Shown here in pieces: positions 22,096 to 22,149 of a stretch of 64,000 nt of DNA. The stretch covers positions 270,566 through 334,565 of the forward strand of contig CAZNZL010000001.1 in the NCBI GenBank assembly GCA_964577565.1, in the 5' to 3' direction. Source of the DNA: an uncultured Candidatus Saccharibacteria bacterium. GTDB lineage: Bacteria > Patescibacteriota > Saccharimonadia > Saccharimonadales > JAGQNJ01. Within the stretch, counting starts at the first letter, position 1; each line of letters begins with the position of its first letter. Made by a program: the position numbers and the translations under genes. The notes under the pieces were generated by a model, which had not been told where the DNA came from, ran no database searches, and was given only the letters and a program-made list of their open reading frames with translations.

Positions 22096-22149
22096 TTCGC
22101 TTTCGTCCTTTTAGGACTCATCAGCATGAACACACATTCATGGAGCGAA
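22096..22149 (-). ncRNA. type III hammerhead ribozyme (HHR-2)
   Basis: Minus strand: UUCGCU-C^-CAUGAA-UGUGUG-UUCAUG-CUGAUGA-GUCC-UAAAA-GGAC-GAA-AGCGAA. Canonical CUGAUGA...GAAA core. Differs from HHR-1 only at N7, one loop-1 base and one extra loop-2 base. Confidence 0.9.

Follow-up and report, generated by a model that had tools for sequence, protein, structure and literature searches.

A conserved type III hammerhead ribozyme as the predicted 3′ terminal module of a Saccharibacteria gene cassette

Two hammerhead cassettes in tandem

The window analyzed here is a stretch of 64,000 nucleotides (nt) from an uncultured Candidatus Saccharibacteria bacterium (GenBank assembly GCA_964577565.1, contig CAZNZL010000001.1, positions 270,566 to 334,565), and our subject is HHR-2, a type III hammerhead ribozyme on the minus strand between two small gene cassettes, M2 and M1, the second of which ends in a hammerhead of its own (HHR-1). 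As the original prediction had it, HHR-2 begins 2 nt after the M2 3′ arm CCTGCTTGTCA (22162-22152) and ends 16 nt before TAGACA (22079-22074), the -35 box of M1. A single nucleotide separates the end of HHR-1 from the stop codon of a GH63-like gene (19867-21183, plus strand) running convergently. The features of both cassettes and the parts of HHR-2 are collected in Table 1.

Table 1. Features of the M2 and M1 cassettes and of HHR-2, in window coordinates unless a relative's locus is named; ORF, open reading frame; aa, amino acids; SD, Shine-Dalgarno sequence; MFE, minimum free energy structure; UTR, untranslated region
Feature	Position	Strand	Basis or remark
M2 promoter, TTGACA, 18-nt spacer, TG-TATAAT	22970..22999	-	promoter scan 12/12, extended -10
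M2 5′ stem-loop, GGGUG/CACCC outer stem around UU-GAG...(C)UC	22926..22964	-	whole-transcript MFE and centroid
M2 5′ arm, UGACAAGCAGG(UA)	22910..22922	-	family-wide conserved arm sequence
M2 leader	22777..22893	-	hairpin AAGGUGAGG.../...CCUCACCUU and divergent RAGATH-10-like element
M2 RAGATH-10-like element	22848-22777	-	closing helix includes SD GUGAGGAGAAAG
M2 cargo ORF, 160 aa, ORFan	22287..22769	-	SD GAGGAGAAAG 7 nt upstream of ATG
M2 decoy in 3′ UTR	22226..22255	-	inverted copy of 3′ arm, linker, stem III 5′ strand, and start of stem I
M2 3′ arm, (UG)CCUGCUUGUCA	22152..22164	-	complementarity, transcript folds
HHR-2, type III hammerhead	22096..22149	-	sequence, covariation, folds, descriptor scan
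HHR-2 stem III	22149-22144 with 22101-22096	-	open at 5′/3′ ends
HHR-2 C17	22143	-	predicted cleavage between 22143 and 22142
HHR-2 stem I, 6 bp	22142-22137 with 22130-22125	-	loop-closed
HHR-2 core CUGAUGA (C3-A9)	22124-22118	-	
HHR-2 stem II, 4 bp	22117-22114 with 22108-22105	-	loop-closed
HHR-2 GAA (G12-A14)	22104-22102	-	
M1 promoter-like TAGACA-17-TATAAC	22051..22079	-	degenerate copy of M2 promoter
M1 5′ region	21961..22041	-	M2 stem-loop copy, second stem-loop, 5′ arm
M1 copy of M2 stem-loop	22041-22016	-	
M1 second stem-loop, ending GUACUU	22008-21977	-	family canonical type
M1 5′ arm	21976-21961	-	inverted repeat of 16 nt, 94% complementary
M1 cargo ORF, 179 aa, ORFan	21342..21881	-	only match in 5.8e9 proteins is itself
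M1 3′ arm, AACCACUACACUGUUA	21240..21255	-	unlike M2 arm, complementary to own 5′ arm
HHR-1	21185..21237	-	predicted cleavage between 21231 and 21230
RAGATH-10 relative in L023	3677-3754		same position in cassette as M2 leader
RAGATH-10 relative in L036	2466-2543		same position in cassette as M2 leader

Sequence and predicted fold of HHR-2

From 22149 down to 22096 the minus strand reads UUCGCUC/CAUGAA-UGUGUG-UUCAUG-CUGAUGA-GUCC-UAAAA-GGAC-GAAA-GCGAA, where the slash marks the predicted cleavage site. The core is complete, with C3-A9, G12-A14, the A15.1-U16.1 pair (A22101 with U22144), and, at H17, the C at 22143; and since stem III is open while stems I and II are closed by loops, the element belongs to type III. 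Folded by itself, the 54-mer adopts the three-stem hammerhead at its MFE (-15.3 kcal/mol, z = -2.8), and these three helices also appear when the whole 877-nt M2 transcript is folded, both in the MFE and in the centroid. The original prediction had read this sequence, its position, and its intact core directly from the minus strand, had placed the cut between 22143 and 22142, and had held that HHR-2 departs from HHR-1 only where the fold tolerates change; all of this holds, the differences being N7 (U/C), one loop-1 base, and one extra loop-2 U.

A full hammerhead descriptor (the core CUGANGA/GAAA, H17, a stem II of 4 bp, and stems I and III each of 5 bp or more) matches exactly two sites in the 64-kb window, HHR-2 and HHR-1, and none in 200 dinucleotide shuffles; the core pattern on its own is too loose to reach significance (9 matches in the window against 2.5 expected). 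The Rfam model Hammerhead_3 (RF00008), run over 6 kb, gives HHR-2 28.9 bits (E = 0.0045) against a curated gathering score of 48.5, and at that threshold no hammerhead is reported in the window or in 18 of the related loci, which is why standard Rfam annotation misses HHR-2. The low score reflects the seed of the model, which has longer loops, and not the absence of any core feature. Thus HHR-2 shows every sequence and structure feature of a type III hammerhead for which we could test, and falls short only of the Rfam cut-off. Judged from its sequence and predicted fold, we conclude that HHR-2 is a genuine, conserved type III hammerhead whose self-cleavage is itself a prediction.

A covarying family in Saccharibacteria

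Scanning one genome per species with the stem II/III part of the motif as a pattern yielded 45 loci, nearly all in metagenome-assembled genomes (MAGs) of Saccharibacteria/Saccharimonadia and often several per contig (individual loci are designated by L and a number); the same pattern found 99 stretches in metagenomes, of which 83 were confirmed by covariance model. Segments of the window are 64-79% identical to Saccharibacteria MAG loci, which together with its housekeeping genes (see below) marks it as a piece of Saccharibacteria chromosome. The cassette family is multi-copy and, in these scans, nearly confined to Saccharibacteria (TM7) genomes. An origin in a phage or plasmid was considered and rejected, as no DNA match was found in the phage collection and the hammerhead pattern has 0 matches in viral contigs; 68 viral-contig matches to an arm/stem III pattern are due to chance, none of them holding a hammerhead by covariance model. 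Nor is the sequence an artefact: two independent Sequence Read Archive assemblies are 100% identical to the window from 22941 to 20532.

An alignment of 48 distinct copies reveals strong constraint on the fold. Specifically, i) 98.2% of the cells are paired, with compensatory changes (56 cells) at every one of the six stem I pairs, while stem II and the stem III 3′ strand, being set by the search pattern, are uninformative here; ii) 0 of 500 shuffles reach the observed level of stem I covariation, and slid registers fall to 28-46% pairing; iii) the core columns are invariant across the 48 relatives; iv) loop 1 (U-GUG-Y-R-U) and the A-rich loop 2 are better conserved than stem I, compatible with a loop-loop contact; and v) further copies, detected at these loci by a covariance model trained on the alignment and so independent of the fixed pattern, include compensated variants of stem II (GCUG/CAGC and GUCG/CGAC) and of stem III (UUCACU/AGUGAA). 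Because all stem I pairs covary and compensated stem II and III variants exist, we conclude from the comparative evidence that the ribozyme fold is under selection. One copy may be decaying: in the last hammerhead of the three-cassette array in L044 (5701-5757, minus strand), position C3 of the catalytic core is a U, and this copy is likely weakened or dead.

Cassette anatomy and long-range arms

Some 30 fully sampled cassettes share the same complete layout in a fixed order: a sigma-70 promoter, a 5′ stem-loop, the sequence (G)UACUU, a 5′ arm, a leader, a single sense ORF of roughly 80-350 aa, a 3′ UTR, a 3′ arm, and the hammerhead. The promoter consensus is ATTGACA-N17/18-TATGCTAtAAT, in a layout found in about 25 relatives. 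The 5′ stem-loop has a conserved UU-GAG...CUC center and outer stems that vary in a compensated manner (CUUCG/CGAAG, UUUUG/CAAAA, CUCG/CGAG, and CCGUG/CACGG), a covariation judged by eye, since uneven trimming made the automatic consensus-fold alignment poor.

The hammerhead follows the 3′ arm of its own cassette by 1-4 nt (usually 2, and usually UA) in about 100 relatives. The 5′ arm is usually UGACAAGCAGACA and the complementary 3′ arm has the consensus UGUCUGCUUGUCA. At least seven other arm sequences exist, each complementary to its own partner 500-1100 nt away, examples being GATGGATTGTTC, ATTTCTACTCTACTT, and AACCTGATTGTC, as well as CACTACACTGTTA of M1 in the window. A perfect arm partner of at least 10 nt is present at 31 of 49 loci, where we estimate that about 3% would have one by chance. 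Where the helix is extended beyond the arms, G-U pairs outnumber A-C mismatches by 6 to 2, counts too small to separate an RNA helix from DNA repeats. The M2 5′ arm is 100% complementary over 11 nt to 22162-22152 and pairs with it when the full transcript is folded, in MFE and centroid alike. What the original prediction called the M2 bracket arm is not specific to that cassette, being the family's conserved arm sequence (TGTCTGCTTGTCA). Folded from predicted start to predicted cleavage site, both mRNAs are predicted to be closed by the arm helix with a 9-nt tail beyond it (z = -5.8 for M2 and -4.75 for M1).

The leader connects these cassettes to a known RNA motif. The Rfam family RAGATH-10 (RF03147) takes its name from an association with hammerhead-associated genes (PMC11061315). 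Its gathering score of 41.2 is exceeded in the leaders of L023 (60.5 bits) and L036 (55 bits); the leader of M2 matches weakly (25.7 bits, E = 0.14), its first internal hairpin aligning poorly. These matches confirm that the cassettes are the kind of hammerhead-associated genes from which the RAGATH motifs emerged; by the RAGATH-10 annotation, the association of leader and hammerhead had already been noticed. The closing helix of RAGATH-10 contains the SD, and the sequence CACAAG(A/G)UGAG just after the 5′ arm can instead pair with the other strand of that helix, so that the leader has, as modeled, mutually exclusive pairings in which the SD is hidden or open. In the 3′ UTRs of relatives such as L044 and L015, a conserved CACGG..CCGUG hairpin and then a pyrimidine tract (UGCUUUCUUCCU) stand ahead of the 3′ arm; the relatives' pyrimidine tract UGCUUUCUUCCUAACCCCA is nearly complementary to the SD region GAGGAGAAAG. 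At the corresponding position M2 has a weak terminator-like hairpin (22201-22186, minus strand).

The 3′ UTR of M2 also holds a decoy, an inverted copy of the 3′ arm and the adjoining start of the ribozyme. When the 3′ UTR is folded alone, the decoy pairs with 22170-22139 and abolishes the hammerhead; in the fold of the full M2 transcript, the long-range arms and the hammerhead win over it. Among about 97 cassettes, only M2 of the window and L024 have such a decoy, which is therefore not a feature of the family.

M1 has a chimeric appearance and may depend on M2 read-through. The promoter scan does not list its promoter-like sequence because the -10 box ends in C (there is no -7 T), and its 5′ region joins a copy of the M2 stem-loop to a stem-loop of the family's canonical type. 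The M1 3′ UTR (21261-21327, minus strand) forms a GC-rich hairpin, GGUGGCGGGG...CCCCGCCACC, that encloses the T-loop-like sequence GUUCGAU; a tRNA-like reading of this hairpin was rejected, as ARAGORN finds no tRNA or tmRNA there.

Cargo and genomic context

Cargo is hypervariable. Only about 8 of 58 sampled cargo proteins match any Pfam family, among them the Tad4 Thoeris inhibitor, DUF2807, Band_7, and an Rce1-like family; some match phage protein families of unknown function, and no PADLOC model matches the cargo. A few small families of proteins are found repeatedly, at 40-65% identity, and are therefore real genes. Homologs of Tad4, a phage inhibitor of Thoeris defense, are carried by L034, L035, L042, and one metagenome cassette, with scores of up to 111 bits; Tad4 is odd cargo for a cellular chromosome, and is possibly relevant to the epibiotic lifestyle. 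The GC content of the cargo mostly exceeds that of the flanks (57% against 44% in the window).

The proteins of M1 and M2 have no match in Pfam, PDB, or PADLOC and no relative among the cargo of the other cassettes, and searches of 5.8e9 proteins and 1.84e9 representatives found no homolog apart from two repeat-like matches and M1 itself. The idea that the two are paralogs, suggested by a shared HxREVxG stretch, was dropped when BLASTP showed nothing, and their single-sequence AlphaFold models are unusable (pLDDT 45 and 44). The M2 ORF has GC1/2/3 values of 0.62/0.36/0.73; its coding strand rests on the orientation of the cassette, because the public gene caller chose a 161-aa ORF on the opposite strand (22320-22805, plus strand). 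Long antisense ORFs of this kind are common in GC-rich cargo segments and can mislead annotation.

Flanking genes in the window are of the housekeeping type (an NADH-dehydrogenase-like oxidoreductase, a GH63/MGH1-like hydrolase, a DHODH-like protein, RmuC, and ZIP), and housekeeping families likewise dominate 140 flanking ORFs at 24 loci, with no integrase, transposase, or phage family among the commonest Pfams. Rfam at its gathering thresholds reports only four tRNAs in the window, and no ribozyme of any other class was detected; the tRNA genes lie at 33853-33923 and 51778-51851 on the plus strand and at 60985-61067 and 61071-61141 on the minus strand. Elsewhere, the cassettes of L014, L023, L015, and L033 start directly after a tRNA or tmRNA gene, and the promoter of L014 follows the 3′ end of a tRNA without interval, an arrangement that recalls integration hotspots, with no integrase nearby.

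Tandem cassettes like those of the window are uncommon. A second hammerhead on the same strand within about 1.1 kb is found for only about 6 of roughly 104 distinct copies, and about 90% of the relatives end a lone or last cassette. Where the downstream neighbor could be scored, it is convergent in 24 of 41 cases and co-directional in 17; many of the convergent stop codons are 1-20 nt from the ribozyme, so close that a terminator would have no room. The site of HHR-1 itself has a counterpart in L013 (1-322): there, too, a hammerhead abuts the stop codon of the GH63 gene, which is 79% identical to that of the window, but the stem I of this hammerhead differs, the arm is the canonical one, and the sequence farther upstream is unrelated, which implies that cassettes turn over at a conserved site.

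Proposed role of HHR-2 and alternative explanations

We consider it probable that HHR-2 belongs to the M2 cassette as its 3′ terminal module, which would define the 3′ end of the M2 mRNA and free that mRNA from the RNA downstream. HHR-2 is assigned to the upstream cassette because the spacing of the ribozyme to the upstream arm is fixed at about 2 nt, because the ribozyme is present at lone and terminal cassettes, and because a convergent stop codon is often near. Transcription would start at the strong sigma-70 promoter of M2, and polymerase would pass through the ribozyme site; the RNA would form the conserved 5′ stem-loop; the 5′ arm would pair with the 3′ arm across the whole message, in a helix of 11-16 bp; and the hammerhead would fold two nt past this helix and cut itself after C17. 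The released M2 mRNA would then carry a 2′,3′-cyclic phosphate on a 9-nt tail beside the terminal duplex, with the 5′ stem-loop at its other end, and would be detached from whatever is transcribed next, here the M1 cassette. In this way a ribozyme of about 55 nt would replace a terminator hairpin, providing a defined and protected 3′ end without stopping the polymerase, and the M2 message would probably be resistant to exonucleases and independent of the downstream sequence. We infer cleavage in vivo, stabilization of the mRNA by the 5′-3′ helix, and uncoupling as the selected function from this arrangement. The insulator between two expression units that the original prediction saw in HHR-2 survives in part: uncoupling of the two RNAs is a plausible consequence, but the element is more probably the 3′ module of M2 than a free-standing spacer. 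Separation of the M2 and M1 RNAs may matter more here than elsewhere because the M1 promoter is degraded and not called by the scan; some M1 RNA may thus originate in read-through from M2 and owe its release to HHR-2.

We wish to emphasize that several observations count against this interpretation. Complementary arms are also expected of terminal inverted repeats acting at the DNA level; M2 has a local decoy capable of hiding its cleavage site; the weak terminator-like hairpin of M2, which has a U/C tract and lies just upstream of the 3′ arm, would, if efficient, stop transcription ahead of the ribozyme; Hammerhead_3 scores stay below 48.5 bits both for the window copy (28.9) and for its best relative (38.1); and stem III, UUCGCU/AGCGAA, is nearly constant even in the copies that the search pattern did not constrain (the extra covariance-model copies of L044, L015, L024, L020, and L006), where stem I differs in each, a degree of conservation that simple cis-cleavage does not require. 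Moreover, self-cleavage and the resulting RNA ends are predictions for every member of the family, and that Saccharibacteria RNases would spare a 2′,3′-cyclic-phosphate end beside a duplex is an assumption.

Four other explanations deserve consideration. If most M1 RNA arose by read-through from the M2 promoter, HHR-2 could serve chiefly to process a dicistronic M2-M1 precursor, leaving M1 RNA with a 5′-OH at C1.1; the contrast between a degenerate, uncalled M1 promoter (TAGACA-17-TATAAC) and an M2 promoter scoring 12/12, the lack of a convincing terminator between the two ORFs in the promoter/terminator scan, and the shared 16-20 nt spacing from hammerhead to -35 box in the tandem arrays of L044, L024, L015, and L020 all fit such a scheme. 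We nevertheless regard it as unlikely: no cassette follows in about 90% of the family, the downstream cassettes of other arrays retain good promoters, and it is the upstream arm, rather than the promoter downstream, to which the ribozyme keeps a fixed distance. A second possibility is a circular RNA, in that cuts at HHR-2 and HHR-1, two same-sense hammerheads with identical stem III strands, would release a unit of 912 nt with 5′-OH and 2′,3′-cyclic-phosphate ends, which the stem III halves could align for ligation, as in viroid-like RNAs and plant retrozymes, where circles of 600-1000 nt are known (PMC5680766). The conservation of stem III across the family beyond the needs of cis-cleavage would suit this, but most cassettes have a single hammerhead and none upstream of the first cassette, and the unit would contain a promoter and an ordinary SD-led ORF, so that ligation into circles seems to us highly improbable.

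Selection might instead act on the DNA, the conserved cassette ends being homology or recognition sites for the swapping of cargo and the ribozyme secondary, an arrangement compatible with a 3′ end module. Pointing this way are the hypervariable, mostly ORFan cargo with a GC content above that of its flanks, the several copies per genome, the L013 hammerhead at the identical GH63 spot with another stem I, arm, and upstream sequence, the cassettes that abut tRNA or tmRNA genes, and the precedent of PeSL cassettes (PMC2839356, PMC4122927); yet integrases and transposases are not enriched nearby, the conserved stretches are short (the longest run of identity between HHR-1 and HHR-2 is 17 nt), and stem I covariation together with an invariant core indicates selection on an RNA fold, for which reasons we hold a role at the DNA level to be quite improbable. 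Lastly, HHR-2 could be a switch that becomes active only once the 5′-3′ arm helix has formed, the decoy otherwise burying the site, so that cleavage would report completed folding and perhaps exposure of the SD. The folds invite this idea, since the 3′ UTR alone gives the decoy hairpin that excludes the hammerhead, the full RNA gives arms and hammerhead, and the leader's SD-sequestering and SD-free pairings adjoin the 5′ arm; however, the decoy is confined to 2 of about 97 cassettes and the evidence consists of thermodynamic predictions, and we give the switch very little credence.

A broader possibility, which we raise tentatively and think somewhat unlikely in its full form, is that the family is a genome-wide platform of standardized closed-loop mRNA cassettes, with a panhandle joining the 5′ and 3′ ends and a RAGATH-10 leader gating the SD, that hosts and exchanges fast-evolving ORFan cargo, anti-defense proteins such as Tad4 homologs among it, with ribozyme and arms acting both as signals for RNA processing and stability and as the ends at which cargo is swapped.

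Relation to known systems

Compared with the type III hammerheads of Rfam (RF00008), known from viroids and satellites and from bacteria and phages, HHR-2 has the same core, three-way topology, size (about 54 nt), and GUC-type cleavage site (UC/C), but scores below the gathering threshold, has short loops (6 nt and 4-5 nt), and has a nearly invariant stem III; its family, moreover, is in these scans nearly confined to Saccharibacteria and is fixed 2 nt from a long-range helix predicted to close the mRNA. The ribozyme itself is thus an ordinary member of its class, and the novelty is in its use and context. RAGATH-10 is a 5′ leader and not a ribozyme, and nothing in the searchable library was found to include the anatomy of the whole cassette in its description.

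Synthetic insulators of the RiboJ type place a hammerhead between promoter and ribosome binding site, where it standardizes the 5′ UTR. The likeness is that self-cleavage makes the RNA of a unit independent of adjacent transcribed sequence; the difference is that HHR-2 follows the ORF and would set the 3′ end. Retrozymes and viroid-like circular RNAs (PMC5680766) offer another comparison, as same-sense hammerheads 600-1000 nt apart could excise a ligatable unit, but retrozymes are non-coding and always flanked by two ribozymes, whereas most of the cassettes contain a single ribozyme together with a promoter of their own and an ORF that codes for protein.

An architectural parallel is offered by the PeSL (promoter-early plus stem-loop) cassettes of T4-type phages, which surround ORFans with a promoter and a terminator stem-loop (PMC2839356, PMC4122927). 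Like these, and like phage "morons," the Saccharibacteria cassettes are short conserved promoter and 3′ end modules around diverse ORFans of deviant composition, and at a junction such as that between M2 and M1 a 3′ end element is followed by the next promoter within about 20 nt, as in PeSL. Unlike PeSL, the 3′ element is a predicted self-cleaving ribozyme rather than a terminator hairpin, and the cassettes are set among the housekeeping genes of cellular chromosomes rather than in the hyperplastic regions of phages; no copy was found in viral contigs or in the phage database. A further trait of PeSL cassettes is recombination at the conserved motifs, which shuffles cargo and yields mini-circles; for the Saccharibacteria cassettes the evidence on this point is indirect, namely the other cargo, arm, and stem I of L013 beside the GH63 gene. 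The searchable literature contains no paper linking hammerheads or other ribozymes to cassettes in Saccharibacteria, and the arrangement is undescribed there.

Significance

To our knowledge, the role of hammerhead ribozymes in bacteria is largely unknown. Because the curated Rfam threshold misses the family, these cassettes are unannotated in hundreds of genomes. The fixed place of the ribozyme leads to testable predictions regarding the 3′ end of the mRNA, the dependence of mRNA stability on both arms and cleavage, and the uncoupling of neighboring genes, and these can be tested in vivo because Saccharibacteria have recently become genetically tractable (PMC10633639). The cargo, mostly ORFans with a few Tad4 homologs, may bear on the dealings of these epibionts with their hosts. 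Should the platform of exchangeable closed-loop cassettes prove real, it would be a cellular, ribozyme-based counterpart of the integron and PeSL systems, and would give bacterial hammerheads a concrete physiological role.

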